Shown here: positions 6,632 to 62,984 of the stretch, piece by piece
How positions within the stretch are numbered: position 1 is the first letter of the stretch
Layout: each line of letters begins with the position of its first letter
Assembly (NCBI GenBank): GCA_016867315.1
Contig: VGJV01000003.1
Span: 27,429-91,428, forward strand
Source: Candidatus Liptonbacteria bacterium
GTDB lineage: Bacteria; Patescibacteriota; Minisyncoccia; UBA6257; 2-01-FULL-56-20
Direction of reading: 5' to 3'
DNA length: 64,000 nucleotides
The notes under the pieces: generated by a model
What the model was told of the DNA's origin: nothing
Database searches by the model: none
Seen by the model: only the letters and a program-made list of their open reading frames with translations
Made by a program: the position numbers and the translations under genes

Positions 6632-6668
6632 CGCTACGTGCTACTCGCTACATGCTACTTGCTATCCC

Positions 6669-11961: not shown

Positions 11962-12112
11962 GCGTAATTTCTAATTCCTAATATCAAAATCCTAAATAAG
12001 CCCCAACCTCCAATTTTCCAAATTGAAATTTCGTGCTTGGTATTCTAAAATTATTTAGAAATTAGTAATTAAATATTAGAAGTTTTGCTTTTTAATCTTT
12101 TATTCATAATTC

Positions 12113-12460
12113 ATGATTCACAATTCACAAGCATTGCTCATACGCTGGGGGTTGGCATTCGTATTTTTGTATGCGGGATTAGCCAGTTTGCTCCGACCTC
12201 TGGATTGGATAGGGTATTTTCCCCCGTTTCTCCTAGCGCTCATACCTCAAGGCTTTTTACTTCCTGCGTTTGCAGTAATAGAAATTGTGCTGGCGGTATG
12301 GCTTTTCTCGGGGAGACGGGTAAAAGCGGCAGGATGGGTGGCATTTTGCCTGCTCCTTGGCATTACAATATTTAACTTCGGCATATTCGACGTGGTGTTT
12401 CGGGATGTGGGGTTGGCGCTCGGCGCTCTCGCTTTAACGGCTGCGCATAGAGAAGCTTAG
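12113..12460 (+). CDS. DoxX-like small membrane protein
   Basis: 115 aa with 3-4 predicted TM helices. Confidence 0.45.
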   Translation: MIHNSQALLIRWGLAFVFLYAGLASLLRPLDWIGYFPPFLLALIPQGFLLPAFAVIEIVLAVWLFSGRRVKAAGWVAFCLLLGITIFNFGIFDVVFRDVGLALGALALTAAHREA

Positions 12461-21834: not shown

Positions 21835-21915
21835 TTTCTAATGTCGAATTTCTAACGAAATCCCGATGCTCAAATCCCAATTAGAAATTAGGTTAATTAG
21901 AAATTAGAAATTTCC

Positions 21916-23303: not shown

Positions 23304-23414
23304 GATGGAAAAAATTTCTAATATCTAATTACTAATTTCTAAATAATGTCTCAATTCTAATATCCAATCTCCAAATTGGGAAATGGGATTTCGTTAGAAA
23401 TTCGATACTAGAAA

Positions 23415-32495: not shown

Positions 32496-32569
32496 TGGTG
32501 CCCCCACTTGGAATCGGACCAAGGTCAACTGCTTAAAAGGCAGCTGCTTTACCACTAAGCTATGGGGGC
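32496..32569 (-). tRNA. tRNA-Lys (anticodon UUU), CCA encoded
   Basis: Reverse complement GCCCCCATAGCTTAGTGGTAAAGCAGCTGCCTTTTAAGCAGTTGACCTTGGTCCGATTCCAAGTGGGGGCACCA folds as a cloverleaf with a 7-bp acceptor stem, T-loop TCCGATT and anticodon loop CTTTTAA. Confidence 0.8.
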
Positions 32570-32576
32570 ATTCCCC

Positions 32577-32612
32577 GTCCACCCACCAGGACTTGAACCT
32601 GGAACCATCTCC
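32577..32612 (-). repeat. 36-bp exact copy of the 3' half (T-arm plus acceptor 3' strand) of tRNA-Lys(CUU), followed by a GC hairpin (32614-32632)
   Basis: 32577-32612 is identical to 32737-32772. The copy diverges exactly where the anticodon arm would begin. Confidence 0.7.
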
Positions 32613-32738
32613 TGGCGAAACGATGTTTCGCCAATTGGTTCGTTCGGCAAAAATAATTTTTGTACTTTCGCCTCACTATCAATTGTAAGAGGATAGTTGC
32701 TCCTTGTCCCGTAGATATCTTATGTTGGATTCCCTTTG

Positions 32739-32811
32739 TCCACCCACCAGGACTTGAACCTGGAACCATCTCCTTAAGAGGGAGTTGCTCTGCCAATTGA
32801 GCTATGGGTGG
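32739..32811 (-). tRNA. tRNA-Lys (anticodon CUU), CCA not encoded
   Basis: Reverse complement CCACCCATAGCTCAATTGGCAGAGCAACTCCCTCTTAAGGAGATGGTTCCAGGTTCAAGTCCTGGTGGGTGGA. Acceptor stem CCACCCA/TGGGTGG, T-loop TTCAAGT, anticodon loop CTCTTAA. Confidence 0.75.
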
Positions 32812-34209: not shown

Positions 34210-34245
34210 TTCTACTTTCTACTTTTTAATTTCTATTTTCTAAAA

Positions 34246-39705: not shown

Positions 39706-39766
39706 AACCGGGATAGAATTGCGAATTATTCACAATTCCAAATTCCATATTCTAAATTCCTGAGTG

Positions 39767-40565: not shown

Positions 40566-42320
40566 ATGAAAAATGAAGTGAGAAATTGTCAGAATTGTAA
40601 GTCTGATTTCACGATCGAAACGGAAGACTTCAACTTTTATCAGAAAATGCAGGTTCCGCCGCCCACATGGTGCCCAGATTGTCGGCTGGAGCGACGATTG
40701 GCATGGCGGAACGAAAGGGTGCTTTTTAGAAGAACGGACAGCATAACCGGCAAAACACTGCTCGCAGGGTTCCCGCAAGATGTGCCGTTTCCTATCTACG
40801 AACGAAACTATTGGTGGTCAGACGAGTGGGATCCGTTGCAATACGGAAGAGATTTCGATCCCTCAAGACCCTTCCTCGAACAACTGAAAGAACTAATGCA
40901 CACGGTGCCCTGGCCGAGCCGCAGTGTGATGTTCGAGACAAATTCGGAATATACGGATCAAGCCGGACATCTCAAAAATTGCTATCTTTGCTTCAACGCC
41001 GATTACTGCGAGAATTGTCTATATCTGGTCCGAGCGAATACCACCAAAGACACGCTGGATTCGCTGCAAGTTCAAAACTCCGAGCTTTGCTACGATTCGG
41101 TGCTCATCAACAAAAGTTTCCGCATGTTTTATTCATTCGACTGCGATGGCTCGAGTGATATGCATTTCTCAAAGCAGTGCGTGGGCTGTAATCACTGCTT
41201 CGGCTGCGTAGGGCTCCGAAAGAAAAGTTATCACATCTGGAATCAGCCTTATTCGAAGGAGGAATACGAAAAGAAATTGAAAGAAATGAACTTGGGCTCC
41301 CGCGCCTCGATCGAGGCCCTCAAAGCCGAAGCGCGTCGCTTTTGGCTCAAGTTCCCGTGCAAATACTACCGCGGGATTCGAAATATAGATTCGAGCGGAG
41401 ATATGCTTATCGATACAAAGAATGCCAAACAGTGTTACTGGGTAACGAATGCAAAAGACGTGCGCTACTGCCAAGATTTATACATCCAATCTGAAGACTG
41501 TTATGACTACACAGTCTGGGCAAATCATGGTACGCGGATTTATGAATGTCTCACCTGCGGCGAGGAAGTGCAGAACCTGAAATTTTGCTTCGATTGTTGG
41601 CCTGCCTGCCGAGATCTCGAATATTCCGTAGGCTGCCATTCGACTTCGGATTGCTTCGGCTGTGTCGGTTTGAAGAAAAAGCAATATTGCATACTGAATA
41701 AACAATATTCCAAAGAAGAATACGAAAAAATTCGCGAGCAGATTATCGCGCAGATGAAAGAAATTCCTTATGTGAATGAGAAGGGAATCGAATATAGGTA
41801 CGGAGAATTCTTGCCGACTGAATTTTCTCCTTTTGCGTATAACGAGACAATGCTTCTCGATGCGTTCCCACTCACTAAGGAAGAGGCGATAAAGAAGGGA
41901 TATCGCTGGCGGGATCCCGATCGCAAAGAGTATCAAACGACCCTTAAAGCTGCGGAGCTGCCGGATGCTATCAATGAAACAAAAGAAGAGATTACAAAGG
42001 AAATCCTCGAATGTGCAAAGTGCAAAAAAGCCTATCGAATTGTGGCGCCTGAACTCGCATTTCATAAGCGGCTCGAAATCCCATTGTCTGATATATGCCA
42101 AGATTGCAGGCATGCGGAACGGTTCACATTATTGAATTCTCCTCGATATTTCTCCAGGGCTTGCATGTGCGCCGGAGAAGCAGATGCCACGGGAGTGTAT
42201 AAAAATACCGCGACGCACTCACATGCAGGGCAGTGTCCCAGCAAATTTGAAACCGCGTATACTCCCGACCGCCCCGAGATTATCTATTGCGAAGAGTGTT
42301 ATCAAAAAGAAACCACTTAA
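40566..42320 (+). CDS. Cys-rich paralog family member 1 (584 aa), unknown function
   Basis: N-terminal C-x2-C-x21-C-x2-C-R (NCQNCKSDF…FYQKMQVPPPTWCPDCRLERR) and the WDP…YGRDFDPSRPF block. Two internal modules end C.GC.GL(R/K)KK.Y.I.N.QYSKEEYEK, followed by GEFLP…SPFAYNET. The C-terminus has C..C…YRI…FH…IP.S.IC.DCRH and a terminal C.C…NTATHSH…CP..FET.YTPDRPEIIYCEECYQ. Confidence 0.8.
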   Translation: MKNEVRNCQNCKSDFTIETEDFNFYQKMQVPPPTWCPDCRLERRLAWRNERVLFRRTDSITGKTLLAGFPQDVPFPIYERNYWWSDEWDPLQYGRDFDPSRPFLEQLKELMHTVPWPSRSVMFETNSEYTDQAGHLKNCYLCFNADYCENCLYLVRANTTKDTLDSLQVQNSELCYDSVLINKSFRMFYSFDCDGSSDMHFSKQCVGCNHCFGCVGLRKKSYHIWNQPYSKEEYEKKLKEMNLGSRASIEALKAEARRFWLKFPCKYYRGIRNIDSSGDMLIDTKNAKQCYWVTNAKDVRYCQDLYIQSEDCYDYTVWANHGTRIYECLTCGEEVQNLKFCFDCWPACRDLEYSVGCHSTSDCFGCVGLKKKQYCILNKQYSKEEYEKIREQIIAQMKEIPYVNEKGIEYRYGEFLPTEFSPFAYNETMLLDAFPLTKEEAIKKGYRWRDPDRKEYQTTLKAAELPDAINETKEEITKEILECAKCKKAYRIVAPELAFHKRLEIPLSDICQDCRHAERFTLLNSPRYFSRACMCAGEADATGVYKNTATHSHAGQCPSKFETAYTPDRPEIIYCEECYQKETT

Positions 42321-42321
42321 A

Positions 42322-44034
42322 ATGCAGAATATGAACTGCAAACACTGCAAAAAAGATTTTGCAGTCACTGCAGATGATCTACGGTGGTATGAAAAATTCG
42401 GAGTATGTATCCCAAAGCTTTGCCCACAGTGTCGGGCGCAGCGGCGGTTAGTCTTTCGAAACGAACGAAGCTTCTACAAGCGTCCCTGCGATAAGTGCAA
42501 AAAGGACGTGGTTTCGATGTATAGCCCCAACAAACCGTATACCGTGTACTGCCACGATTGTTGGTTTAGGGATGACTGGAATCCGCTTGATTTCGGTAGA
42601 GATTATGACTCCTCGCGGCCCTTTTTCGACCAGTTCAAAGAATTATGGGAAAAGGTGCCAAAAATTTCGCTTATCCATGTCCGGAGCGTGAATTCGGAAT
42701 ATCTGAATATCTGCGCCGATAATAAAAACTGCTACATGATTGTGGAATCTTCTAATAATGAAGATTCTATTCATTGCTATTGGATTCAAAAAACAAGGAA
42801 TTGTGTGGACACTTCTTTTTCCCATGAGTGCGAGCGCTGTTACGAATCGGACGACATTTACAATTGTTATCAAACACACTACAGCAAGGGGTGCCACGAC
42901 TGCCGGGATAGTTATTTTCTGTTCGATTGCAGAAATTGTTCTAATTGCATTGGCTGCGTGAATCTGCGCAACAAACAATATTGCGTGTTTAATGAACAAC
43001 TCTCCAAAGAGGAGTATCAAAAAATTTTGAAGGAAGCTCGACTCGACACTGCATCGGGCATAGAAAAATTGCGTGGCCAATTTGAAGAGTTTAAGAAAAA
43101 ACAGCCTCGCAAATTTGCGGAAGCGGTAAATGTAGTGAATTGCTCGGGGAATTATTTGAAGGATGCGAAAAACTGCAGCGACTGCTTCCATACATATGAA
43201 GCCGAAGACTGTAAATATGCGGTACACGCCTGGCGTGATGCGAAAGACTGCGTGGATACGGACACCACGGGCAGAGGAGTGCAGATGGTCTATAACTCGC
43301 ATAACACTGGCATCAATGCCTCGAATTGTATTTGCTGTGCGCTCTGCTGGGGAAACAACTTTCTTACTTACTGCGCGTATTGTTATGACTCACAAGACTG
43401 CTTTGCCTCCACCGGCCTCCGTAAAAAACAGCACTGCATTTTGAATAAACAATATTCCAAAGAAGACTACGAAAAACTCAAAACTCAAATTATTGCAGAT
43501 ATGAAACGCGAGGGCATATATGGGGAATATTTCCCGCCCTCCTTAAGCACGTTTGGATACAATGAGGCCTGTGTGCTCGAGCAAATACCGCTTATGAAAG
43601 AAGAAGCGCTCTCACAAGGTTTCAAATGGGAAGACCACCCTCGTGGCGCGTTCGGGAAAGAAACGGCAGGTTGGGAAAAAATTCCGGATTCTATCCTCGA
43701 GCTTCAATGCGATGCCTCCAAAGAAATTTTTGCATGTACTGCGTGTAGAAAAAATTATCGAATTATCTCTGACGAGCTTACGTTCTATAAATCGTTGGAA
43801 ATTCCCTCGCCGCGATTGTGTCCCGATTGCCGGCACGTGCGTCGCTTTACCGCGCGGGGTCCCAATCATGTAAAGGAAAAAAAATGTAGCTGCGAAGGTA
43901 TTAGAGCAGGGGGTTATCTGAATACTGCCAACACTTTCACGGAGAACATCCATGTCCTAACCGCTTTAAAACTGCCCATTATGAGGATTCCAATGCAATC
44001 CTTTACTGCGAAGAGTGTTATAACTCCGAAGTAG
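42322..44034 (+). CDS. Cys-rich paralog family member 2 (about 570 aa)
   Basis: Same architecture as member 1. The N-terminus has two complete CxxC…CxxC ribbons (NCKHCKKDF…CPQCR, CDKCKKDV…CHDC). The ORF track starts at 42184, overlapping member 1; the start is more likely at 42322 (MQNMNCKHC…). Confidence 0.8.
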   Translation: MQNMNCKHCKKDFAVTADDLRWYEKFGVCIPKLCPQCRAQRRLVFRNERSFYKRPCDKCKKDVVSMYSPNKPYTVYCHDCWFRDDWNPLDFGRDYDSSRPFFDQFKELWEKVPKISLIHVRSVNSEYLNICADNKNCYMIVESSNNEDSIHCYWIQKTRNCVDTSFSHECERCYESDDIYNCYQTHYSKGCHDCRDSYFLFDCRNCSNCIGCVNLRNKQYCVFNEQLSKEEYQKILKEARLDTASGIEKLRGQFEEFKKKQPRKFAEAVNVVNCSGNYLKDAKNCSDCFHTYEAEDCKYAVHAWRDAKDCVDTDTTGRGVQMVYNSHNTGINASNCICCALCWGNNFLTYCAYCYDSQDCFASTGLRKKQHCILNKQYSKEDYEKLKTQIIADMKREGIYGEYFPPSLSTFGYNEACVLEQIPLMKEEALSQGFKWEDHPRGAFGKETAGWEKIPDSILELQCDASKEIFACTACRKNYRIISDELTFYKSLEIPSPRLCPDCRHVRRFTARGPNHVKEKKCSCEGIRAGGYLNTANTFTENIHVLTALKLPIMRIPMQSFTAKSVITPK

Positions 44035-44118
44035 CATAGCCCTTCCCAAAACGTAAAACCTGTGGTAATGTAAAGACAGAAACCGTTCCTTTTAAAGGCC
44101 GAAAAACCATACTATCAA

Positions 44119-44427
44119 ATGGTTATTATCTATACTACGTGTAAGGATACGGCCGAAGCGACAAAGATCGGCAAGGTGATTTTGGACAGCAAATTGGCCT
44201 CTTGCGTGAACATCTGGCCCATCCAGAGCATGTTTCATTGGGAGGGAAAACTCGCTAATCAGCTCGAAGCCGGAATGCTGGTAAAAACCGTAGAACATCA
44301 CACTGCCGAGATCGAAGAATTGATCACGAAAAACCATTCCTATTCCGTACCTTTTATTGGCGTGATGCAGGTGCATCGCCATAATAGAGCGTACCGTGAA
44401 TGGATGAGTTCGGTGGTCAAACCATAA
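44119..44427 (+). CDS. cutA: divalent-cation tolerance protein CutA
   Basis: MVIIYTTCKDTAEA…SCVNIWPIQSMFHWEGK matches the CutA1 family. Confidence 0.8.
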   Translation: MVIIYTTCKDTAEATKIGKVILDSKLASCVNIWPIQSMFHWEGKLANQLEAGMLVKTVEHHTAEIEELITKNHSYSVPFIGVMQVHRHNRAYREWMSSVVKP

Positions 44428-45920
44428 TTTTTCAAATGAAGCTCGAGCTTATAAAAAAGCTCCCCACCGAAGGAGCAATAGTGTTTGTGATAAAAGAAGG
44501 AGTCTCTCTAAAGACACATCCATTTTTGAAGTTTCTCGGAGAGGAGGACAAAAAATATATCGAAACCGTCACGAATGCATCAGGTGCAAGTGGAATTTCT
44601 AATAAATTCTTGATTCTTCCCTCGGGAAGAAAAACTTTAATTATAAGTGTTCCTGCAAAAGATAAATTTACCGGCCGCAAAGCGATTCTCTCCGCCCGGC
44701 GGGTGATCGTGGCCGCTCGAAGTGAAAAACTGGCACAGATTGTCGTATTGCTCGAAGACTTTCAAGCCCGAACATCCCCGCAAGAAACCGCGACGATGCT
44801 TGGTACTCAACTGGAGATCGCCAATTTTGAATTTGTAGCATATAAAACTGCCCCTAAGGAAGGATGGAATTTTGTAGAAGAAGTCGGAGTATTCTCAAAG
44901 TACAGCCTAGAATCCTTACGCAAAGCGCTCGAAGCGGGAAAGGTAGTTGGAGAAGAAGTAAATGCGGCGCGAGTCCTCTCAAATACTCCTGGGGGAGATA
45001 TGACTCCTGCTGGCCTCGCTGAAGCAGCGCTCCAAGCCGGTAAAAAATCCGGGTTTAAAGTGACAATTTTGGATGAAAAAGAAATTACCAAACTCGGCAT
45101 GGGCGGCGTCTTGGGAGTCTCTAAAGGTTCCGTGGAAAAACCCCGCTTCATCGTCATAGAATACCTTCGCGGCAAAAAATCCGAAAAGCCGGTAGTGATA
45201 GTGGGAAAAGGAGTTACTTTCGATACTGGAGGATTGAACCTAAAACCCACGCAAGCGATCTATGAAATGCATATGGATATGTCCGGTGGAGCCGCCACAA
45301 TCCATATTCTCGGAGCACTCGCCCGGCTCAATGTAAAGAAAAACGTGATTGGGTTGGTACCTGCAGTAGAAAACATGCCCTCCGGTTCAAGTTTCCGCCC
45401 CGGAGACCTCTTAAAATCCATGTCGGGCAAAACCATTGAGGTAACGAATACTGATGCGGAAGGCCGAGTGATCCTCGCGGATGCCTTGGAATATGCCAAG
45501 CGTTACAATCCTCGTTTAGTAGTAGACATAGCTACGCTCACGGGCGCTGCGCTCGTAGCGCTGGGTCAACGAGCTTCTGCCATATTTTCGACCAGTGCTC
45601 CGGTAGAGCGTTCTCTTCGCGCAATTGGAGAAGAAACTGGAGATTTCGTCTGGCCGCTGCCCTTGTGGGAAGAATACGAAGAAGATATTAAAGGAATGTT
45701 CGGAGATTTTGCGAACTCCGGCAAGAGCCGCTGGGGAGGCGCGATTGAAGGCGCCGTATTCCTTCGCCAATTTATTCGCGACAAAGAAGGGAATGATGCA
45801 TATCCGTGGGTGCACCTCGATATTGCTCCCCGTATGACCTCGGTAGACGGAGAATTTCTGGCCAAGGGCGCCGCGGCTCCTTCCGTCGCCCTCCTCACGC
45901 AATTTTTGCGTGAATACTAA
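44400..45920 (+). CDS. pepA: leucyl aminopeptidase (M17 family)
   Basis: M17 signature NTDAEGRVILADAL, plus VGKGVTFDTGG and MDMSGGAA. The likely start is the M near 44430. Confidence 0.85.
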   Translation: MDEFGGQTIIFQMKLELIKKLPTEGAIVFVIKEGVSLKTHPFLKFLGEEDKKYIETVTNASGASGISNKFLILPSGRKTLIISVPAKDKFTGRKAILSARRVIVAARSEKLAQIVVLLEDFQARTSPQETATMLGTQLEIANFEFVAYKTAPKEGWNFVEEVGVFSKYSLESLRKALEAGKVVGEEVNAARVLSNTPGGDMTPAGLAEAALQAGKKSGFKVTILDEKEITKLGMGGVLGVSKGSVEKPRFIVIEYLRGKKSEKPVVIVGKGVTFDTGGLNLKPTQAIYEMHMDMSGGAATIHILGALARLNVKKNVIGLVPAVENMPSGSSFRPGDLLKSMSGKTIEVTNTDAEGRVILADALEYAKRYNPRLVVDIATLTGAALVALGQRASAIFSTSAPVERSLRAIGEETGDFVWPLPLWEEYEEDIKGMFGDFANSGKSRWGGAIEGAVFLRQFIRDKEGNDAYPWVHLDIAPRMTSVDGEFLAKGAAAPSVALLTQFLREY

Positions 45921-45941
45921 AATTAGGCTATTCTTAAAGGA

Positions 45942-47609
45942 ATGAGCTCGACTCGTTCCTGCAGGCAATGCAGGAACGCATTCTCTGTGGATGCTTCAGA
46001 CCTCTCATTTTATGAAAAAATGGGAGTTCCCGTGCCGGCACTCTGCCCCGAGTGCCGATTTCGACGTCGTGCCGGGTTTCGAAATGAACGCACGCTCTAC
46101 AAGCAAAACTGCAAACTTTGCGCCAAGTCGGTAATCACCATGTACAACCCAAAATCACCGCTTGTTGTGTACTGTAATGACTGCTGGGCTTCAGATAAAT
46201 GGGATCCGAGCGCATATGCGATGGAGTATGATCCTTCCCGCCCTTTCTTCGATCAGTTAAAAGAACTCTCTCAAAAAGTTCCTAAATCCGGAACGTATTC
46301 GAGTGCATGGGCAGGTCCGAATGTAAGAAGTGAATACACTAACTTCGCGGGGAGTAATAAAGACTGTTATCTTTGCTTTAATTCAGGCCCGGAAAATGAA
46401 AATTGCGCCTATTCCAGAGGCATCATGCGTTCGCGGGATACATTCGATACCTACTACGGTTATGAAACCGAAAGGGGATATGAGGGAATAAATATGCAAA
46501 AAAGCTCAGGTGTTGCCTGGGGACAAAATATCCTCGAATGTCTCGATTCCTGGTTTCTTTTGAACTGTGCGAGCGTCCAAAATTGCTTTGGATGTGTGAA
46601 TCTGCGTCATAAATCGAATGCCTTCCTAAATGAGCCTCTTGAAAAAGAAGAGTGGAAACGAAAAATTTTAGAAATTACCGGTAGCTATCAAAGAATTGAA
46701 GAATTTAAAAAACAATTTCAGGAACATGCACTCAAATTTCCGCGGCGAGAAAATAATAATTTGAAATCAGTTGATTGCACGGGGGATTACATATTCGAAT
46801 CCAAAAACTGTCATGACTCATTTGAGGTGGGTAATGGAGAAAATTTGAAATATGTGTTCTCTGTAAAGTTCACCAAAGACAGTTATGACTTAATTGGACA
46901 CGGGCGGAATTCTGAACTGCTGCTTGAGGGAGTGGGAGCCGGAGCAAGTCAGCGCATCATAGCCGGTTGGTGGATAGAAAATGCCCATGATGTGGAATAT
47001 TCTTTTGCGACGCGCGCGAGCGAATATTGTTTCGGCTGCGACGGAATAAAAGGAGGGAAGTATCGGATATTAAATAAGCAGTATTCAGAGGAAGAATATA
47101 AGAAACTTCGCGCGCATATTATAGAAGAATTGAAAAACATCGGAGAATATGGGCTCTTTTTTCCGCCCTCGCTCTCGTTTTTCGCATATAACGAAACCAT
47201 CGGACAGGACAATCTGCCGCTCTCCAAAGAAGAAGCTATCCGACAAGGCTTCCGCTGGGAGGAAAATCTTCCCGCCACGAAGGGTCAGGAAACACTAAAA
47301 GCGGAACAACTCCCGGATCACATTAAGGATGTGCAGGATTCGATTTTGAGCGAAATTCTCGCTTGTATTTCCTGCGGTCGGAATTATCGGCTTATCAAGC
47401 CGGAGCTAGAAGCATATCGACGAGCACTAATTCCCATTCCAAGAAAGTGCTTCAATTGTCGGCACCTAGATAGACTGACTCGCCGGGGCCCGTTTAAATT
47501 ATTCGACCGCACCTGCGCAAAGTGTAATAAAGCAATCCGAACCAACTACGCTCCAGAACGACCCGAAATTGTGTATTGCGAGACTTGTTACCAAAATGAA
47601 GTTATATAG
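45942..47609 (+). CDS. Cys-rich paralog family member 3 (555 aa)
   Basis: SCRQCRNAFSVDASDLSFYEKMGVPVPALCPECRFRRR, a second ribbon CKLCAKSV…CNDC, the KWDPSAY..EYDPSRPFFDQLKEL block, CFGCVNLRHK, ILNKQYSEEEYKK, FFPPSLSFFAYNETI and C-terminal CISCGRNYRL…CFNCRH…IVYCETCYQNE. Confidence 0.8.
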   Translation: MSSTRSCRQCRNAFSVDASDLSFYEKMGVPVPALCPECRFRRRAGFRNERTLYKQNCKLCAKSVITMYNPKSPLVVYCNDCWASDKWDPSAYAMEYDPSRPFFDQLKELSQKVPKSGTYSSAWAGPNVRSEYTNFAGSNKDCYLCFNSGPENENCAYSRGIMRSRDTFDTYYGYETERGYEGINMQKSSGVAWGQNILECLDSWFLLNCASVQNCFGCVNLRHKSNAFLNEPLEKEEWKRKILEITGSYQRIEEFKKQFQEHALKFPRRENNNLKSVDCTGDYIFESKNCHDSFEVGNGENLKYVFSVKFTKDSYDLIGHGRNSELLLEGVGAGASQRIIAGWWIENAHDVEYSFATRASEYCFGCDGIKGGKYRILNKQYSEEEYKKLRAHIIEELKNIGEYGLFFPPSLSFFAYNETIGQDNLPLSKEEAIRQGFRWEENLPATKGQETLKAEQLPDHIKDVQDSILSEILACISCGRNYRLIKPELEAYRRALIPIPRKCFNCRHLDRLTRRGPFKLFDRTCAKCNKAIRTNYAPERPEIVYCETCYQNEVI

Positions 47610-47622
47610 AGACCGAATAAGT

Positions 47623-47657
47623 CGAAGTCCCGCCATAGCTTTAGCGAAGGAGGATGA
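47623..47657 (+). promoter_or_regulatory. conserved 35-nt intergenic element, copy A (cgaagtcccgccAtagctttagcgaaggaggatga)
   Basis: 34 of 35 positions identical to 53318-53352. It lies downstream of paralog member 3. Confidence 0.5.
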
Positions 47658-47681
47658 AAGCTGCTACCAGCAGGAAGTGGT

Positions 47682-49361
47682 ATGGGACAGAAAATAGAAA
47701 TGAATGCTGAGATAAGAAATTGCAGAAGCTGCAAGCAAGACTTCACGATTGAACCGGACGATTTCACGTTTTATTCAAAAGTTGGAGTGCCCGCGCCGCA
47801 CGATTGTCCGGTGTGTCGTCAGCGTCGGAGGATGATTTTTCGAAATTTCAAGACGCTCTACAAGCGAAACTCCGATCGTTCTTCAAAGCCGATGATCTCG
47901 ATGTATGCTCCGCACGCATCATACAAGGTTTTCACCCACGATGAATGGTGGGCGGACAATTGGGATGCTCGGCAATATGGCCGAGACTTTGATTTTTCGA
48001 GACCATTTTTTGATCAATTTAAAGAACTTCTCCTTGCGGTGCCAAAGATGAATTTGGTAAGTGTTCAAAGTGAAAATTGTGAATACTCTAATTTTGCGTG
48101 GAAGAGCAAAAGCTGCTATCTCGTCTTCGGCTGCGTAGATAACGACACGTGCGCATACGGTCACATTGTTTGGGAATCGAAAGATTCTGTAGATAATCTC
48201 TATCTTTATAAATCTGAGCTTTGTTTTGAATGTGTGGATTGTTTATGGAGCTACGGCTTACTCTGGTCTCAAGAATGCGAGAGTTGCAGCGAGAGTATTG
48301 GGCTTTTCGACTGCCGGAGCTGTACCAACTGCATAGGTTGCGTAGGTCTAAAACAAAAGTCCTACCACATATTCAATCAGCCGGTAAGTAAAGAAGAATA
48401 TGTAAAGTTTTTAGCCGAGCATCCGCTTACCGATCCAAAAACACTTCCATATATTCTGGAAAAACAGCGTGAATTGAGGCGTCAAATACCTCAACGTCAT
48501 TTTTTTGGCTCACATAATAATGCGGTATCAGGAAATCACATATACCATGCAAAAAATGTGCGCTATTCCTTCGACGTAAAGGGAGGAGAAAACTCTAAAT
48601 TTGCATATACGACCCGCAAAGTAGTAGATGGCTATGATGTCGCGTTCTCACCAGACATAGAACTCGCATATCAAGCGCTCACCTCGCGCGGGAACGGGAT
48701 CTACTTCGCGCATATGAATTACGAATGCAGTGATATCTATTATTCGGATAGCTGCCAAAATGTGCATAACGCGTTTGGCTGCGCGGGGCTCAAGGGCGGA
48801 GAATATTTGATTTTGAATAAACAGTATTCAAAAGAAGAATACGAAACACTAGAAGAGAAGATCGTCGAGCATATGAAGAAAACAGGGGAGTGGGGAGAGT
48901 TCTTCCCGGCGACTCTTTCACCGTTCGCATATAACGAGTCCATCGCGCAGGAATATTTTCCACTAAGAAAGGAAGAAGTCCTCGCGTCGGGCTTTCGGTG
49001 GGAAGAAAATATTCCCCGCACTTCCGGACAGGAAACCATCTCTCATGATGCGCTTCCGAAAAATCCTGCCGAATTCGACGCAGATTCACTTTTAAAACAG
49101 GTTTTGAAGTGTGACAGTTGTGGTTACAATTTCCGTTTCACCGCCCAAGAAATTCCATTTTATAAACGATTAAATCTCCCCTTGCCCCGCAATTGTTTTA
49201 ACTGCCGTCACGAACGTCGCATGAAACAGCGAAATATACGTAAGCTATGGGATGGAAGCTGCGCGAAGTGCAATACAAAGTTTCAAACCTCCTACTCTCC
49301 GGAGCAGCAAAAGGAATTTAAAGTTTACTGCGACTCCTGCTATCTTCAAGAAATGGGTTAG
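47682..49361 (+). CDS. Cys-rich paralog family member 4 (559 aa)
   Basis: NCRSCKQDFTIEPDDFTFYSKVGVPAPHDCPVCRQRRR. The second N-terminal ribbon is degenerate (Cys lost). CIGCVGLKQKSYHIFNQPVSKEEY, LILNKQYSKEEYE, SPFAYNESIAQEYFPL and C-terminal CDSCGYNF…CFNCRH…KVYCDSCYLQE. Confidence 0.8.
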   Translation: MGQKIEMNAEIRNCRSCKQDFTIEPDDFTFYSKVGVPAPHDCPVCRQRRRMIFRNFKTLYKRNSDRSSKPMISMYAPHASYKVFTHDEWWADNWDARQYGRDFDFSRPFFDQFKELLLAVPKMNLVSVQSENCEYSNFAWKSKSCYLVFGCVDNDTCAYGHIVWESKDSVDNLYLYKSELCFECVDCLWSYGLLWSQECESCSESIGLFDCRSCTNCIGCVGLKQKSYHIFNQPVSKEEYVKFLAEHPLTDPKTLPYILEKQRELRRQIPQRHFFGSHNNAVSGNHIYHAKNVRYSFDVKGGENSKFAYTTRKVVDGYDVAFSPDIELAYQALTSRGNGIYFAHMNYECSDIYYSDSCQNVHNAFGCAGLKGGEYLILNKQYSKEEYETLEEKIVEHMKKTGEWGEFFPATLSPFAYNESIAQEYFPLRKEEVLASGFRWEENIPRTSGQETISHDALPKNPAEFDADSLLKQVLKCDSCGYNFRFTAQEIPFYKRLNLPLPRNCFNCRHERRMKQRNIRKLWDGSCAKCNTKFQTSYSPEQQKEFKVYCDSCYLQEMG

Positions 49362-49405
49362 AAGCAGTAACTCATCTACTAAGTATGCGATCGCTTAAGT
49401 AGTAG

Positions 49406-51160
49406 ATGAATCTCATAATGAACAATCAAATAAAAAGCTGTCAAAACTGCAAAAAAGACTTTGTGATTGCCCCGGAGGACTTTCAATTTTACGAACGTAT
49501 AAAAGTTCCGGCGCCGACGTTCTGTCCCGATTGTCGTCTCCAAAGACGCATGGCTTTCAGGAACGAACGAAGTTTATATAAAAACATTTGCGCACTTTGC
49601 AAAAAACAGTTTGTTTCGATGTATTCGCCAGACAAACCCTTTATAGTCTACTGCAAAGAATGTTGGTATTCGGATAACTGGGATCCGCTGCAATATGGTC
49701 AGGATTATGATTGGGATAAACCTTTCTTCGAACAGTTTCGGGAATTGATGCTTAAAGTTCCCAGAATCGGGATCATGCACATTCGCAACAATATCAATGC
49801 CGATTATGCGAACTATATCTCCGCAAGCAAGAATATTTATCTTTCTCAGTCCGTTATAGAAGGCTCAGAAAATATTTACTACTCTCGAAGTATAGATCGA
49901 AGCAAAGAAATCTTTGATTGTTTTAATGTCAAAGATTCCGAACGATGCTATGAAAATGTGGATGGTGGGAGAAATTATCGCTCGAAATTTCTGGTACGAT
50001 CGCGGGATTGCATTGATTCCGCATTTCTTTTCGACTGCGTGAACTGTCAGAACTGCATAATGAGCGCGAATCTGCGCAATCGGCAATATGTAATCCGCGG
50101 GAAACAATATTCAAAAGAGGAATATGCCACAGCCTTGGAGAAAATCGAATTCGGTAAACAAAGCGAAATTGAAAAATTAAAACAGGAATTCGAAAATGTG
50201 ATGGAAAAAGCCCTGCATAAATTCGCTAATATCACCAAATCAGTAACCTCAACGGGAGATAATATCGATAATTCTAAAAATGCGGCTTACCTCTTTGACG
50301 CATATAACTGCGAGAATGTGCGGTACGCGGCTAGGGCAATAGGATGTAAAGACTCCTACGATATCATGGGAGGGGCAAATCTCGAACTTGTATATGAACA
50401 GATGGCTGGTGGTTACGGAAGCAGAAACTCCTTAGCGTTAAGTCATGGGGAAGTGACGCTTGAGAGTAACTACACAGACTGGTGTCAAAGTTCCTCAAAT
50501 CTTTTCGGTTGCATATCACTTCGAAAGAAACAGTATTGTATTTTGAATAAGCAATATTCAGAGAAGGAATATAAGGAGTTCTATCCAAAGATTATCGAGC
50601 ATATGAATACAATGCCTTTCGAAGATAGAATGGGAAGAATGTACCGTTACGGAGAATTTTTCCCAATTGAGATTAGCCCATTCGCTTATAACGAGACGAT
50701 CGCAGAAGAATATTTCCTCCTCGCGAAGGAAGAAATTATGAAAAAAGGTTATACGTGGAGAGAACTCGATCCACTTCCGTACGTGCCCACTGTAAAGGGA
50801 AAAGATTTACCCGACGATATTGCGAATGTGGAAAATTCAGCAACCAAAGAATTGATAGAATGCGAAAATTGCAAACGAGTGTATCGAATAGTACAGCCGG
50901 AACTTGAATTTCTTCGGCGCGAACAAATTCCCTTACCGAGAACTTGCCAAGAATGCCGACACGCAAAAAGATTGACTCTCCGCAATCCCCTTAAATTATG
51001 GTCTCGAAAATGTATGTGTGACTATAAGGTATGGAAGAACACTGCGAAGCATGTCCATCATCCGGAAGATCGATGTTCAAACGAATTCGAAACGAGTTAT
51101 TCTCCAGAAAGGCCGGAGGTAATATATTGTGAGCAATGCTATCAAGCAGAAATTAGCTAG
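49406..51160 (+). CDS. Cys-rich paralog family member 5 (584 aa)
   Basis: SCQNCKKDFVIAPEDFQFYERIKVPAPTFCPDCRLQRR, CALCKKQF…CKECW, CQNCIMSANLRNRQYVIRGKQYSKEEY, CILNKQYSEKEYKE, SPFAYNETIAEEYF and C-terminal CENCKRVYRI…CQECRH…VIYCEQCYQAE. Confidence 0.8.
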   Translation: MNLIMNNQIKSCQNCKKDFVIAPEDFQFYERIKVPAPTFCPDCRLQRRMAFRNERSLYKNICALCKKQFVSMYSPDKPFIVYCKECWYSDNWDPLQYGQDYDWDKPFFEQFRELMLKVPRIGIMHIRNNINADYANYISASKNIYLSQSVIEGSENIYYSRSIDRSKEIFDCFNVKDSERCYENVDGGRNYRSKFLVRSRDCIDSAFLFDCVNCQNCIMSANLRNRQYVIRGKQYSKEEYATALEKIEFGKQSEIEKLKQEFENVMEKALHKFANITKSVTSTGDNIDNSKNAAYLFDAYNCENVRYAARAIGCKDSYDIMGGANLELVYEQMAGGYGSRNSLALSHGEVTLESNYTDWCQSSSNLFGCISLRKKQYCILNKQYSEKEYKEFYPKIIEHMNTMPFEDRMGRMYRYGEFFPIEISPFAYNETIAEEYFLLAKEEIMKKGYTWRELDPLPYVPTVKGKDLPDDIANVENSATKELIECENCKRVYRIVQPELEFLRREQIPLPRTCQECRHAKRLTLRNPLKLWSRKCMCDYKVWKNTAKHVHHPEDRCSNEFETSYSPERPEVIYCEQCYQAEIS

Positions 51161-51221
51161 CGATTTATGAAATAAGATTTATGATTTAAGAATCATACAT
51201 AAATCCTGAATCGTAAAATCA

Positions 51222-51518
51222 ATGCATTTCCGAATCGACAACGTAGGCGATAATATGAACACCGTCATGCGCCGGATAGGGTACACGCCCATCCGGTGGA
51301 CGGAAAAAGGGGAGTTGAACTGCGTCCGGCCGCTTCAAGGGCAGGACTACCCTCGTTTTCATGCGTATGTAAAAGAAGAACGCTTCACGCTAATTTTCAG
51401 CCTTCACCTGGATCAAAAGCGTCCTTCCTACGGCAATGAAACCGCACACAGTGGCGAGTATGAAGGAGAAATAATTCAAGAAGAAGCACGGAGGATTCAA
51501 AAGATCTTGAGCTTCTAG
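51222..51518 (+). CDS. hypothetical protein (98 aa) embedded in the paralog array
   Basis: ORF only. It sits between members 5 and 6 and ends 3 nt before member 6 starts. Confidence 0.35.
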   Translation: MHFRIDNVGDNMNTVMRRIGYTPIRWTEKGELNCVRPLQGQDYPRFHAYVKEERFTLIFSLHLDQKRPSYGNETAHSGEYEGEIIQEEARRIQKILSF

Positions 51519-51521
51519 AAA

Positions 51522-53309
51522 ATGGAGAACAGAATTTCAGAAAATCGGGATTGCCAAAATTGCAAACAGCAATTCACGATCGCTCCGGAAGATTTCGCAT
51601 TCTACGAAAAAATCCAGGTTCCACCGCCCACGTGGTGTCCGCGCTGCCGCAACATCCGACGGATGGCTTGGAGAGAAGAGGGCCATGCACTCTATCGGGA
51701 CACGTGCAAGCTTTGCGGCAAAAATATTATCACCATTCATGCGCCGGGACCGTTTACGATATATTGCCGAGAATGTTACAGGTCGGATAAATGGGACCCG
51801 TTGAGTTATGGGAAAGAATACGATTTTAGCATGCCCTTTTTCGCTCAATACCGGAAACTCATGGAAGAAGTGCCTCGACCGGCCCTCACCGGAATAAATA
51901 TCGTAAACAGCGAATTTACGCACGGCTGCAAGGGCGTAAAAAACTGTTATTTCTGTTTCATGAGCTATTTTTCCGAAGACTCGCAGCATAGTTATTTACT
52001 TCTTCTCTCTCGCCACGCGTATGATTCATACGTAACTGATAACTCAGACCAAGTGTACGAAACTCTCCATTCGAACCGGCTTTATAAGGTCGCGTTTGGA
52101 TACTTTGCAGATGACTGCTTAGAGTCCACATTTTTATATGATTGCATAGGCTGTTCGGATTGCTTCGGTTGTGTAAATCTCCGCAAACAAAAATATTGCC
52201 TTTGGAATAAACAACTTTCAAAGGAGGAGTATCGAAAACAAAAAGAATATTGGGATCTTGGGAGTTTTACTCGGTTAGAGGAAGCAAAGAAGAAGTTTCG
52301 GGAATTATATCTCTCGCTTCCGCATAAATATGCGCATGTAGTAAGCAGCCAAAATGCCACCGGAGATATTATCAGAGATACAAAAGACTGTGAGAAATGT
52401 TTTTCCGCCCTTGATGGCGTGCAAAATTGCAAATATGTCTATGTGGGGGGATTGAATTTAAAAGATAGCTACGATGTGAGCGGAGGAGGGGATACTGCCT
52501 CTCTTCTCTACGAGATTCTTGGTACAACGGAAGCACAGCGCTGCTTTTTTGCGAACGGCAGTTCCGGTTCGCAGGATATTATGTATTGCGATTGGGTAAA
52601 TGATTCCTCTCACGTTCTTGGAAGTATTGCCTTGAAACATAAAAAGTATTGCATCTTGAATAAGCAATATGAGAAGGAGGAGTATGCCCAAATGAAGGCC
52701 AAAATAATCGAGCATATGCACTCGATGCCATATGTGGACAAAAAAGGACGAGTCTATAAATTTGGAGAATATTTTCCCACCGAGCTTTCCGCATATGGAT
52801 ATAATGAAACATTCGGATTCTTCTGGTACCCCAAAACCAAAGAAGAAGTTCTAGAAGAAGGATGGAACTGGCATGATCCTCAGAAAAAGTCTTATGAGGT
52901 GACATTGAGACTCGAGGACATCCCTGACCATATTAGAGACATTCCCGATTCCATACTCAAAGAAACCATTGAGTGCGCACATGGAGGAGCGTGCAACGAA
53001 CAATGTACCACCGCGTTTCGGATCACTCCCGAGGAACTCGCCTTTTATAGAGACATGCGGATTGCCCTGCCTAGACTTTGCCCCAATTGCAGAAACTTCC
53101 AAAGAATTCACTGGCGAAATGGCTATGATTTATTTAAACGGAAATGCATGTGCGTCGGCATGCAGAATAAGGATGAGAATAAGTATAAAAATACTGCATC
53201 TCACTTTCATGGAGATGGCTTTTGCCCCAACGAATTCGAAACCACCTTCTCTCCTAAGCAACCGGAAATAATATATTGCGAAGCATGCTACCGCCAAGAA
53301 TTTATATAG
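51522..53309 (+). CDS. Cys-rich paralog family member 6 (595 aa)
   Basis: DCQNCKQQFTIAPEDFAFYEKIQVPPPTWCPRCRNIRR, CKLCGKNI…CRECY, CFGCVNLRKQKYCLWNKQLSKEEY, CILNKQYEKEEYAQ, and C-terminal ECAHGGACNEQCTTAFRITPEELAFYRDMRIALPRLCPNCRNFQR…IIYCEACYRQE. It is most similar to member 7. Confidence 0.8.
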   Translation: MENRISENRDCQNCKQQFTIAPEDFAFYEKIQVPPPTWCPRCRNIRRMAWREEGHALYRDTCKLCGKNIITIHAPGPFTIYCRECYRSDKWDPLSYGKEYDFSMPFFAQYRKLMEEVPRPALTGINIVNSEFTHGCKGVKNCYFCFMSYFSEDSQHSYLLLLSRHAYDSYVTDNSDQVYETLHSNRLYKVAFGYFADDCLESTFLYDCIGCSDCFGCVNLRKQKYCLWNKQLSKEEYRKQKEYWDLGSFTRLEEAKKKFRELYLSLPHKYAHVVSSQNATGDIIRDTKDCEKCFSALDGVQNCKYVYVGGLNLKDSYDVSGGGDTASLLYEILGTTEAQRCFFANGSSGSQDIMYCDWVNDSSHVLGSIALKHKKYCILNKQYEKEEYAQMKAKIIEHMHSMPYVDKKGRVYKFGEYFPTELSAYGYNETFGFFWYPKTKEEVLEEGWNWHDPQKKSYEVTLRLEDIPDHIRDIPDSILKETIECAHGGACNEQCTTAFRITPEELAFYRDMRIALPRLCPNCRNFQRIHWRNGYDLFKRKCMCVGMQNKDENKYKNTASHFHGDGFCPNEFETTFSPKQPEIIYCEACYRQEFI

Positions 53310-53317
53310 CAAGCATG

Positions 53318-53352
53318 CGAAGTCCCGCCGTAGCTTTAGCGAAGGAGGATGA
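53318..53352 (+). promoter_or_regulatory. conserved 35-nt intergenic element, copy B (cgaagtcccgccGtagctttagcgaaggaggatga)
   Basis: It lies downstream of paralog member 6 and upstream of ATPase copy 2. Confidence 0.5.
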
Positions 53353-53494
53353 TGCCTGTTATAAAGCCGAATTTCTATAGATGAATAATTTTTTCTGGCG
53401 TCTTAGGAAATATAAATATCTTCTGCGAATCCTCTGGCAACAGGTAATGTTCAGACTAAAGATAGTTATTCGGAAACTATTTAAATAGGCGTCT

Positions 53495-55477
53495 GTGGCG
53501 ATACATAACATCAAACATCCCTACAAAAAGGTGGCTCCAACTGCCCCGTTGTGGCATAATTTGGAAAGCGCAGACGCGCAACCCAAAAAAATGGGCTTCG
53601 AACCAGAGAAAGACGTCATCTATTTCGGCCGTACCGATTTCCGGAACACCAACCGGCTTTTTGGCATCAAAAGGAATGATCGCCGTCAACATGTCTACGT
53701 TGTCGGTAAAACCGGTACCGGTAAAAGTGTTCTTTTGAATAATATGATTGTGCAGGATATGGCGAACGGCGAAGGACTTGCCGTCGTCGATCCGCACGGA
53801 GAATTGGTGGAAGGGATCTTGGAAAAAGTCCCCGAGGATCGCATTGATGATGTAATTTATTTCAACCCGGCGGATATCGACTCTCATATTGGTTTTAATG
53901 TACTCGAACTTCCCGATCCGAAATACAAACACCTGGTGGCTTCGGGACTCATGGGCATTTTCACTAAGATTTGGGAGAATGTCTGGTCTGCAAGAATGGA
54001 ATATATCATGAATAACGCCATATTGGCGTTGTTGGATACTCCCGGTTCCACACTTTTAGGAATCACGAGAATTCTCGTAGACAAAGATTACCGACAGCAG
54101 ATCATTGCAAACATCAAAGACCCGGTGGTAAAGGCGTTCTGGGTTCATGAATATGAAACATGGCGTGACCAGTTCCGAAACGAAGCTATTGCTCCGATTC
54201 AAAACAAAGTAGGGCAGTTCCTTTCGACCGCACTCGTACGAAATATTGTGGGGCAGCAGCGGAGCACGATCGATATTTTCAATCTCATGAACGAAGGGAA
54301 AATATTTCTCATAAACGTCTCTAAGGGAAGAATCGGGGAAGATAACTCTGCGCTTTTGGGAGCCATGCTCATCACAAAGATGCAGCTTTCTGCAATGGAA
54401 CGTATCCGCGTACCCGAAGAAGAACGCGTGGATTTCTTCCTTTATGTCGACGAGTTTCAGAATTTTGCGACTGATTCATTTGCTGGGATATTGTCCGAAG
54501 CCAGAAAATATCGCTTGGATCTTATCCTCGCACATCAATACATAGGACAATTAGTAACTGATGTCTCGACTAAAGTGCGGGATGCGATCTTCGGAAACGT
54601 AGGAACGATGATCATCTTCCGTGTGGGCGCGACCGATGCGGAATTTTTGGAAAAAGAATTTGAGCCGGAATTCACTCCTCAAGATATAGTAAACCTCCCG
54701 AACTACGCGATTTACTTGAAGCTTATGGTGGATGGAGTAACCTCAAGACCTTTTTCAGCCTCGACACTTCCTCCTTTTAAGGTGGCGACCTCCGAAATGA
54801 CGAAGGAAATGATTATTAAAAACTCGCAAAAGCGATATGCGAGGCCCAGGGGAGTGGTAGAGGAAGAAATAAACCGATGGAGTGGCGTAATGACTACCGC
54901 AGAAGGTGCCCCCACGCTTCCCACGCAAAGTAAGGAGGGCGCATATCTCGCGACGTGCTCTTCCTGCGGTAAAACCACTACGGTTCCATTTGCTCCGGAT
55001 CCATCACGCCCAATTTACTGTAAAGACTGTCTGAATCGCGTGAAGGCCGGAGAGGTATTGCCAGTAAAACTCATGCCAAGATCGAAAAAAGTTCGGGATT
55101 CTTCGAAAGATGCGCTCGCAGCGGTAGGTATCGAATTTGCAGTAGAACCCAAGAGCGAAGAAGAGGTAGAAGAAGAAACCACTCCTGAGGCAGAAACCGA
55201 AGAGGCTGCCGCAACCACTCCTGCTGAAATTACAAAAGCCGAACAAGAAACAGAAAAATCGGAAGAAGCAGCGGAATCTACCCCCGAAGAAACCGCTCCG
55301 AAAGCCGAAGAGGCCAAACCGCAAACGAAAGGAATTTCGCTTTCTGAACTCAAACCCCCGAAGAAGACTCCAAAAATGAAAGAGCGCACTGCTCCGGAAA
55401 TAGATGTGGAGGAATTACGCAAATCCATCGCGGCTTCCCTTGATCAAATTTTAAGCAAAGACGAAGAGAAAAAATGA
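53495..55477 (+). CDS. soluble TrwB/TraD/VirD4-type P-loop ATPase, copy 2, with a C-terminal zinc ribbon and an acidic low-complexity tail
   Basis: Paralog of 38239..39705 (LFGIKRNDRRQHVYVVGKTGTGKSVLL…VVDPHGELVEG; Walker B FFLYVDEFQNF; LILAHQYIGQL). The extra C-terminus carries CSSCGKTTTVPFAPDPSRPIYCKDC, then an E/T/A/P-rich tail. Confidence 0.7.
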   Translation: MAIHNIKHPYKKVAPTAPLWHNLESADAQPKKMGFEPEKDVIYFGRTDFRNTNRLFGIKRNDRRQHVYVVGKTGTGKSVLLNNMIVQDMANGEGLAVVDPHGELVEGILEKVPEDRIDDVIYFNPADIDSHIGFNVLELPDPKYKHLVASGLMGIFTKIWENVWSARMEYIMNNAILALLDTPGSTLLGITRILVDKDYRQQIIANIKDPVVKAFWVHEYETWRDQFRNEAIAPIQNKVGQFLSTALVRNIVGQQRSTIDIFNLMNEGKIFLINVSKGRIGEDNSALLGAMLITKMQLSAMERIRVPEEERVDFFLYVDEFQNFATDSFAGILSEARKYRLDLILAHQYIGQLVTDVSTKVRDAIFGNVGTMIIFRVGATDAEFLEKEFEPEFTPQDIVNLPNYAIYLKLMVDGVTSRPFSASTLPPFKVATSEMTKEMIIKNSQKRYARPRGVVEEEINRWSGVMTTAEGAPTLPTQSKEGAYLATCSSCGKTTTVPFAPDPSRPIYCKDCLNRVKAGEVLPVKLMPRSKKVRDSSKDALAAVGIEFAVEPKSEEEVEEETTPEAETEEAAATTPAEITKAEQETEKSEEAAESTPEETAPKAEEAKPQTKGISLSELKPPKKTPKMKERTAPEIDVEELRKSIAASLDQILSKDEEKK

Positions 55478-62882: not shown

Positions 62883-62984
62883 AAGAATGCTACAATTCTG
62901 AAGTAGCCTAGCATTTAAGAATCACGGAGTGTTAATTGAAAATTGGGAGTAATTCGCAATTCACAATTCTAAATTCTCAATTCC

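Follow-up and report, generated by a model that had tools for sequence, protein, structure and literature searches.

Two nearly identical blocks of 35 nt, found in a 64,000-nt stretch of a Candidatus Liptonbacteria contig (hereafter the window), raise the question of why so short a piece of intergenic DNA should be far better conserved than the sequence on either side of it. Each block follows a member of a tandem Cys-rich gene family encoding proteins of ~560–600 aa, namely m3 (45942-47609) and m6 (51522-53309). An earlier note on this DNA had left several readings side by side, among them an insertion junction and a small RNA or attenuator. We conclude, with a probability of about 0.8, that the 35-mer belongs to a dispersed class of small palindromes of the REP kind and that both copies in the window are insertions of mobile DNA in the 3' ends of paralogous zinc-ribbon genes. 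The two copies and their parts are located as follows.

47623-47657, + strand, copy 1 of the 35-nt block; match to covariance model R1 at 47624-47656, 31.2 bits, E 9e-7
47624-47627, GAAG tag of copy 1
47628-47634, 5' arm of copy 1, TCCCGCC
47635-47648, loop of copy 1, ATAGCTTTAGCGAA
47649-47654, 3' arm of copy 1, GGAGGA
53318-53352, + strand, copy 2 of the 35-nt block; R1 match at 53319-53351, 33.2 bits, E 2.5e-7
53323-53329, 5' arm of copy 2
53330-53343, loop of copy 2, GTAGCTTTAGCGAA
53344-53349, 3' arm of copy 2

The two blocks differ at a single position (34/35), as had been reported, and with up to three mismatches allowed the window holds no other 35-mer match, nor did any arise in 100 shuffles. 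Their closeness to the paralog stops was likewise confirmed, the copies beginning 13 nt and 8 nt past the stop codons at 47609 and 53309. Read from 5' to 3', a local alignment passes from a paralog-level coding match through a short unalignable spacer into the near-identical block, and the element is indeed better conserved (97%) than the adjoining DNA, which matches at 21/30 in the upstream coding tails and 16/30 downstream. The description of the flanks as unrelated, on the other hand, does not hold. Upstream are the tails of paralogous genes, both ending GAA-xTT-ATA-TAG, and downstream are relic tails, since the 30 nt directly 3' of each hairpin are a second copy of the last ten codons of the gene. 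These 30 nt start from the last two bases of the 35-mer, which explains why a repeat search extended the partial match to 44 nt. The GGAGG followed by ATGA had rightly been judged to be no Shine–Dalgarno (SD) and start pair: GGAGGA is the 3' arm of a stem, and the closing GA is the first two bases of a relic codon. As the relic tails start at the end of the element, the 'ATGA' and the partial match beyond it are simply their beginning. The related proposal that the block might be no more than the end of a longer duplicated segment is not borne out as it was meant: the flanks do align as paralog tails, yet only at 53–70%, and identity rises abruptly to 97% within the element.

The current and relic tails of the two genes compare with those of orthologues as listed here.

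47580-47609, + strand, m3 current tail, GAGACTTGTTACCAAAATGAAGTTATATAG = ETCYQNEVI*; 24-25/30 to the L307 and L309 orthologue tails
47656-47685, + strand, m3 relic tail, GAAAGCTGCTACCAGCAGGAAGTGGTATGG = ESCYQQEVVW; 23/30 to the L308 orthologue tail EVCYQQEVV*
53280-53309, + strand, m6 current tail, GAAGCATGCTACCGCCAAGAATTTATATAG = EACYRQEFI*; 17-18/30 to orthologue tails
53351-53380, + strand, m6 relic tail, GATGCCTGTTATAAAGCCGAATTTCTATAG = DACYKAEFL*; 24/30 to both orthologue tails (DACYKAEFL*, DACYKSEFL*)

Within each gene, the current and relic tails agree at 20/30 positions for m3, where the relic search score was 39 against a 95th percentile of 27, and at 19/30 for m6. After the m6 relic comes the spacer TTTTTTCTGGCG..., conserved in orthologues according to the alignments to L306 and L309, and judging from these alignments the m6 relic is the original m6 tail. 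Both relics are in frame with the hairpin, the joined reading being SPAIALAKED at copy 1 and SPAVALAKED at copy 2.

Orthologues of m3 with 73–77% protein identity were found in Liptonbacteria and Ryanbacteria genomes, in the syntenic order paralogs, CutA1, peptidase M17, m3, m4, m5, a small ORF, m6 and a TraG/VirD4-like gene. A search of four such orthologous arrays with the family covariance model, filters off, found no copy after the m3 or m6 orthologues, where the spacers differ in sequence. Relative to L309, the window has a clean insertion of 71 nt between ...ATATATTG and TGATGCCTG..., and the current m6 tail is part of the 71 nt that the L309 orthologue is missing. Given that four orthologous arrays are without the element, both window copies are lineage-specific insertions, each with a working tail upstream and a relic tail downstream, and the element is not ancestral to the array. 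The possibility of an insertion junction, one of those raised in the earlier note, thus gains support from both the empty spacers and the clean insertion. The two insertions lie at the same codon boundary, after TAT-TG(C), where they separate the first Cys codon of the last CxxC from the second.

The array itself shows further features. The CxxC-rich genes occupy 40566-53309 and 61104-62882 and encode proteins of ~560–600 aa with faint matches to Pfam zf_Tbcl/zf_Tbcl_2. In the window and in L306, L308 and L309, the array always ends beside the TraG/VirD4-like coupling-protein gene, which in the window (53495-55477) carries a zf_Tbcl_2 match of its own. Each paralog has its own orthologues at ~75% identity, which indicates that the array is ancient. 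The first ATG of m4 (47682) falls within the m3 relic tail; the ATG at 47700 gives the N-terminus MNAEIRNCRSCK, which matches other paralogs, and is therefore the likelier m4 start.

The earlier note had suggested searching for further copies, and such copies exist well outside the array, so that the element is not array-specific: it belongs to a dispersed family found in many phyla, with a diverged third copy in the window at 10637-10669. Using the scan core CCNCC-RTAGCTTTAGCGAA-GGNGG, matches were obtained in 20 viral contigs (IMG/VR) and at at least 120 loci in GTDB species representatives, where we estimate that ~0.1 would be expected by chance. Among the GTDB matches listed, the phyla include Patescibacteria, Bacteroidota, Verrucomicrobiota, Pseudomonadota (Alpha- and Gammaproteobacteria), Acidobacteriota, Planctomycetota, Elusimicrobiota, Nitrospirota and others, and nearly the same 24–30-mer is common to Patescibacteria, Bacteroidota, Verrucomicrobiota, Proteobacteria and others. 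The subtype present in the window, GTCCCGCC-N-TAGCTTTAGCGAAGGAGG (..GGAGG), was found at 39 metagenome loci with unrelated flanks and a G+C content of 31–58%. The family core was not found in PLSDB plasmids, INPHARED cultured phages or E. coli genomes, and a tblastn search of every fetched locus with the full set of paralogs gave no sign of an association with the paralog family elsewhere. Literature searches by the DNA/RNA core and by the encoded peptides returned no relevant paper, and those for a comparable element of CPR genomes brought up only work on REP/RAYT, Rickettsia and mitochondria; the hairpin repeat is apparently previously undescribed.

Copy number varies strongly between genomes. 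In the 82 kb examined of the source contig (the window plus 18 kb beyond it) there are only three copies, with no further copy in the 18 kb. L285 (880-6135) and L294 (G+C 0.32) hold at least 10 family copies within 6–8 kb, with loops extended to 20–40 nt and inverted doublets whose composite hairpins have folding energies of -40 to -71 kcal/mol; in L294, two copies 6 kb apart share identical 50-nt flanks. Tandem and partial family copies are also present. In a set of orthologous loci termed the L261 group, the copies are identical despite ~18% flank divergence, although these loci were ascertained by exact match.

The family consensus can be written c-Y-T-T-G / Y-CC-N-CC / R-W-A / G-C-(Y-T-Y-R)-G-C / G-A-A / GG-N-GG-R. 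The unit of ~31 nt consists of an unpaired 4-nt 5' tag, YTTG, a 6-bp G+C stem (YCCNCC/GGNGGR) and a 3x3 internal loop, in which RWA lies opposite GAA, followed by an inner stem of 2–3 bp and a YUYR tetraloop. The tag is conserved though unpaired, with base counts among 139 copies of C 85 and T 35 at position -4, T 82 at -3, T 103 at -2 and G 109 at -1. The first scans held the loop fixed; a scan with fixed stem and free loop and a search of the fetched loci for paired CCNCC/GGNGG arms were added, and the loop-free scans return the same loop class, RWAGC-YTYR-GCGAA, with natural variants.

The helices of the family covary. Across 103 distinct copies, pairing is kept in 96% of cells, and both sides have changed at five of the nine pairs, namely outer-stem pairs six and three and all three inner pairs (UA 54/CG 37; GC 43/UA 20/AU 6; UA 77/CG 23). 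On four of five measures the observed values were matched by none of 500 shuffles, and for further pair types by 2/500, while in slid controls, with the partner moved by one to three columns, the covariation signal collapses. Mismatches are distributed unevenly, with G.T/T.G at 28 versus A.C/C.A at 5, and G.A at 21 versus T.C at 2, so that the tolerated mismatches are those that are mild or stable on one strand only. Considering that mutation alone should be strand-symmetric, this asymmetry points to selection on the single-stranded form of that strand, as RNA or ssDNA.

Most copies are intergenic, and they show no orientation preference, with crude ORF calls giving ++ 12, -- 13, +- 8 and -+ 4. 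At low-G+C loci, within 80 nt after a stop, 18 copies were sense and 9 antisense, a count in which the sense class includes several orthologous loci; neither count amounts to a convincing orientation bias. Direct repeats of at least 7 nt (7–14 nt) flank 11 of 159 copies (~7%), in the geometry repeat, tag plus hairpin, repeat, whereas the two controls, displaced by 100 nt in one direction or the other, each gave 0/159. A family-wide test for a 27-nt flanking duplication was negative on average (14.2 vs 13.9), which makes the long tail duplication a trait of a few gene-end copies and not of the family.

Other short repeats were noted in the same material. Intergenic spacers of the window contain tandem arrays with a 7-nt period (AATTCTC, AATTCCA, TTCTACT, AATTAGA and similar), at these positions:

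6633-6664, heptamer array
21879-21912, heptamer array
23313-23368, heptamer array
34210-34242, heptamer array
39734-39760, heptamer array
62951-62983, heptamer array
11965-12126, also a heptamer array

Similar arrays directly flank hairpins in unrelated phyla (L006, L010, L023, L047, L060, L085 and L102), sometimes with the same unit on both sides. The window also has two tRNA-Lys genes on the - strand, 32496-32569 and 32738-32811 (anticodons TTT and CTT), 170 nt apart, with an exact shared stretch of 37 nt at 32577-32613 and 32738-32774.

Family copies also occur in frame inside genes. The third copy in the window is of this type.

10637-10669, + strand, third, diverged family member, ACTTGGCCGCCGAAGCTTCAGCGGAGAAGGCAG; R1 match of 26.4 bits, E 2e-5

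It lies inside a PD-(D/E)XK/Cas4-like nuclease gene (10114-10941), where it encodes ..SDLAAEASAEKAA.., about 11 added residues. Orthologues of this nuclease either miss the segment or have other low-complexity inserts at the same surface loop, and the L299 orthologue carries a near-consensus copy (49 bits, 2024-2056, - strand) in that same loop. Copies on opposite strands and empty orthologues at one loop indicate that the element enters coding DNA repeatedly, and the comparisons show presence/absence polymorphism at orthologous sites and insertion in either orientation. Intragenic entry has also been described for some REPs and for the Rickettsia palindromic elements (RPEs) (PMC3733652).

A search for relic tails over all family copies gave two more independent cases, in SecA (L261 group) and in an aldehyde dehydrogenase-like gene of a Verrucomicrobia MAG (L029). 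In the SecA genes, GSGKKYKKCHG follows the hairpin, which we take to be the canonical SEC-C zinc motif; in L029 the arrangement is FFTEAKNVCIAR* ... hairpin ... FFTEPKNVCVAK*, with the two tails agreeing at 22/27. In all four cases of tail duplication (4/4), the hairpin runs in the sense direction of the gene and shares a reading frame with the relic. Because the tail copies within m3 and m6 agree at only 19-20/30 while the hairpins agree at 34/35, a simple recent target-site duplication is a poor fit. Either the insertions are old and the hairpin has been kept by selection or homogenization, or the new tails came from elsewhere. The identical orthologous copies of the L261 group, though ascertained by exact match, lie amid 18% flank divergence and so point to old insertions kept intact. 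Three copies per 82 kb, two of them at homologous codons of paralogs, is not what random insertion predicts; possible accounts of the paired sites are old insertions with the hairpin maintained in place, a target preference for the motif, or transfer between paralogs.

A role of the element as a dedicated cis-regulatory RNA controlling the downstream member, whether as attenuator, processing site, terminator or SD-sequestering hairpin, has to be weighed. Both copies do sit just past a stop in sense orientation, carry GGAGG and are far better conserved than their flanks, and the identity of the L261-group copies could be read in the same way, with the exact-match ascertainment borne in mind. 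The same spacers in four orthologous arrays nevertheless do without the element, which follows only two of the seven window paralogs, and what comes after copy 2 is a 145-nt spacer, not a paralog. Folding of the element, alone and with flanks and on both strands, was no more stable than that of shuffles (z about 0), and the two copies with their flanks give different, flank-dependent folds. The window copies are atypical in having GAAG instead of the YTTG tag and an extra base in the 5' arm, so that TCCCGCC faces GGAGGA with a 2x1 internal mismatch; these traits account for their weak folding when taken alone. The bases after the element are TGAAAGC at copy 1 and TGATGCC at copy 2; a U-tract is absent, and a scan for intrinsic terminators makes no call at either copy. 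Rfam 15 gives no gathering-threshold match in the window and none at E ≤10 in 47400-53700. With the same hairpin present in hundreds of other, unrelated settings, in many phyla and in both gene orientations, an array-specific small RNA, attenuator or processing site is very improbable, and the evidence requires no array-specific function.

It is rather unlikely that ectopic recombination or gene conversion between the paralogs produced one copy from the other, or that both are the end of one longer duplication, in place of two insertions. In favour of this, both paralogs show the same codon boundary and the same layout (tail, stop, short spacer, hairpin, relic tail), the current tails agree at 11/12 over their final 12 nt (GAAgTTATATAG, GAAtTTATATAG), the new m6 tail ends in an m3-like ATA-TAG unlike the m6 orthologues, and copy number is low (three in 82 kb). 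A recent tract would, however, bring its flanks along at similar identity, whereas the 34/35 match falls to an unalignable spacer of 8–13 nt on the left and to 16/30 on the right, with the current tails at 21/30; paralogs of ~65–70% DNA identity also offer little homology to initiate conversion. Orthologues of both genes lack the element, which excludes an ancestral tandem duplication. Quite unlikely, in our view, is a classical REP/REPIN moved by a RAYT, a single-copy Y1 HUH transposase that recognizes a top-strand hairpin and its 5' tetranucleotide. The modular layout is that of enterobacterial REPs (PMC3733652), the mismatch tolerance is strand-specific, orientation bias is lacking, inverted doublets occur in L285 and L294, and Y1_Tnp genes are common in Parcubacteria, one of them near an L261-group hairpin. 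The tag YTTG, not GTAG/CGTC, and a cross-phylum identity unlike that of lineage-specific REPs speak against it. Flanking direct repeats are moreover not expected from insertion of the IS200/IS605 type, and the search for a mobilizing enzyme described next adds to these objections.

When the ORFs of ~180 loci were clustered all against all, a single Y1_Tnp cluster emerged apart from housekeeping coincidences. In the L261 group, a Y1_Tnp gene lies 137 nt downstream of the hairpin. Such genes, named RayT in JGI annotation, are common in Parcubacteria. A RAYT-like Y1 enzyme as the cognate transposase was nonetheless rejected, given that at five Y1_Tnp loci a hairpin of another sequence, CCACTTGGAAAC..GTTTCCAAGTGG or a variant of it, borders the gene on one side or both:

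L261, 3555-3585, Y1-flanking hairpin
L301, 4960-4990 and 5665-5692, Y1-flanking hairpins
L303, 4960-4990 and 5675-5700, Y1-flanking hairpins
L304, 3675-3700 and 4375-4400, Y1-flanking hairpins
L305, 4963-4988, Y1-flanking hairpin

With model R1, no family copy was found adjoining the Y1 gene in the four newly fetched loci (L301, L303, L304 and L305), and the 82 kb examined of the source contig yielded no Y1 gene. The Y1_Tnp gene adjoins secA in three of the five Parcubacteria loci (L261, L301 and L303). A perfect hairpin of 10–12 bp, CCACTTGG(A/G)xAC...GTxTCCAAGTGG, is found on both sides of Y1 in L301, L303 and L304 and upstream only in L261 and L305, and the Y1 gene together with this hairpin resembles either a long-fixed unit of the IS200 type or a domesticated transposase that has a REP of its own. 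In the source contig, about 4 kb past the window end, there is a free-standing LAGLIDADG homing-endonuclease ORF (L310, 16990-17406).

Returning to the reading of the 35-mer as a dispersed mobile palindrome, the closest known systems are REPs and REPINs. Shared with them are a G+C-rich imperfect palindrome of 20–40 nt with an unpaired terminal tag, an outer stem and non-complementary trinucleotides (Di Nocera et al. 2013, PMC3733652), a short GC-bracketed inner stem with a small loop, tolerance of G.T pairs, a dispersed and mostly intergenic distribution in both orientations with clusters and inverted doublets in some genomes, and occasional intragenic copies, notably in repair and nuclease genes. 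Inverted doublets like those of REPINs are seen for the family in L285 and L294, whereas the window copies are singletons. The differences are that the terminal tag is YTTG (GAAG in the window) and not GTAG/CGTC, with GTAG being internal, beside the 5' arm; that the family is shared across many phyla, whereas REPs are lineage-specific; that no flanked RAYT gene was found; that a subset has flanking direct repeats; and that copy number in the source contig is low (three in 82 kb). With the layout shared but the tag, RAYT flanking and lineage specificity failing, the element works like a REP and stands outside the described families.

Other comparisons are looser. RPEs are in-frame palindromes in protein genes that add a short peptide at permissive sites (cited in PMC3733652). 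The insertions in the nuclease gene at 10637-10669 and in its L299 orthologue resemble them. RPEs are, however, ~100–150 bp long and restricted to Rickettsia, and to our knowledge gene-tail duplication is not a described feature of them. The mobile G+C clusters of yeast mitochondria are short G+C palindromes in an A+T-richer genome, sometimes in frame and with short duplications at the insertion site; they belong to another genetic system, differ in sequence and are likened here by description. Prophage e14 and phage 21 in icd, and homing-endonuclease ORFs in mitochondrial atp6, insert in the 3' end of a gene and supply a surrogate end. The order of gene, new functional tail, inserted DNA and displaced relic of the old tail is the same, the difference being that the inserted DNA here is ~40–46 nt (spacer plus hairpin) and comes without an integrase or endonuclease gene; moreover, the new tails are specific to each target and are thus not the cargo of one universal element. 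MITEs differ in that the arms here are only 6 bp, compared with TIRs of ~15–30 bp, and in that the flanking repeats are variable in length (7–14 nt) and not fixed. The VR/TR pairs of a diversity-generating retroelement were set aside on the grounds that the tail pairs agree at 19-20/30 with differences not confined to A positions and that the repeats are only 30 nt. A likeness to 16S helix 45, off-target integration of the CRISPR type and IS91 targeting of CTTG were considered informally and dropped.

These observations are consistent with mobile DNA whose 'top' strand, in single-stranded form as ssDNA or RNA, would be the intermediate copied by an enzyme supplied in trans. Its insertion would tend to duplicate the target, by 5–14 nt elsewhere and by ~30 nt in the window, and insertions into an essential C-terminus would survive only if the tail duplicate restores the end of the reading frame. 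Once in place, the element would be transcribed as an imperfect hairpin in a 3' UTR or intercistronic RNA, and by analogy with REPs it may protect the upstream mRNA from 3' exonucleases. A more far-reaching idea, which we consider unlikely and put forward tentatively, is that the hairpin represents a kind of non-autonomous mobile element spread across phyla, or else a site bound universally by a conserved factor, with single-stranded copying of the top strand, variable target duplication including tail swaps of ~30 nt, and a sequence that is then held constant. The identical L261-group copies and the 97% identity of the window copies amid diverged or scrambled flanks point towards such constancy after insertion. 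Variable duplications, combined with selection for a fold specific to one strand, would be compatible with retro-insertion of a SINE-like, target-primed kind, which is not known to have been described for such elements in bacteria.

For the window, these results remove a false lead, given that the conserved element carries no specific information on how the paralog array is regulated. The element is explained as selfish or mobile DNA, and what is unusual about it is its cross-phylum identity and the recurrent duplication of gene tails. In the annotation of uncultured genomes, such repeats yield spurious small ORFs and low-complexity inserts (..AVALAKE.., ..SFAKATAD..) and shift stop codons, and the relic tails mimic conserved non-coding DNA. 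If tail duplication proves to be general, it would show how so small a piece of selfish DNA can settle in the last, essential codons of a gene that nevertheless stays functional.
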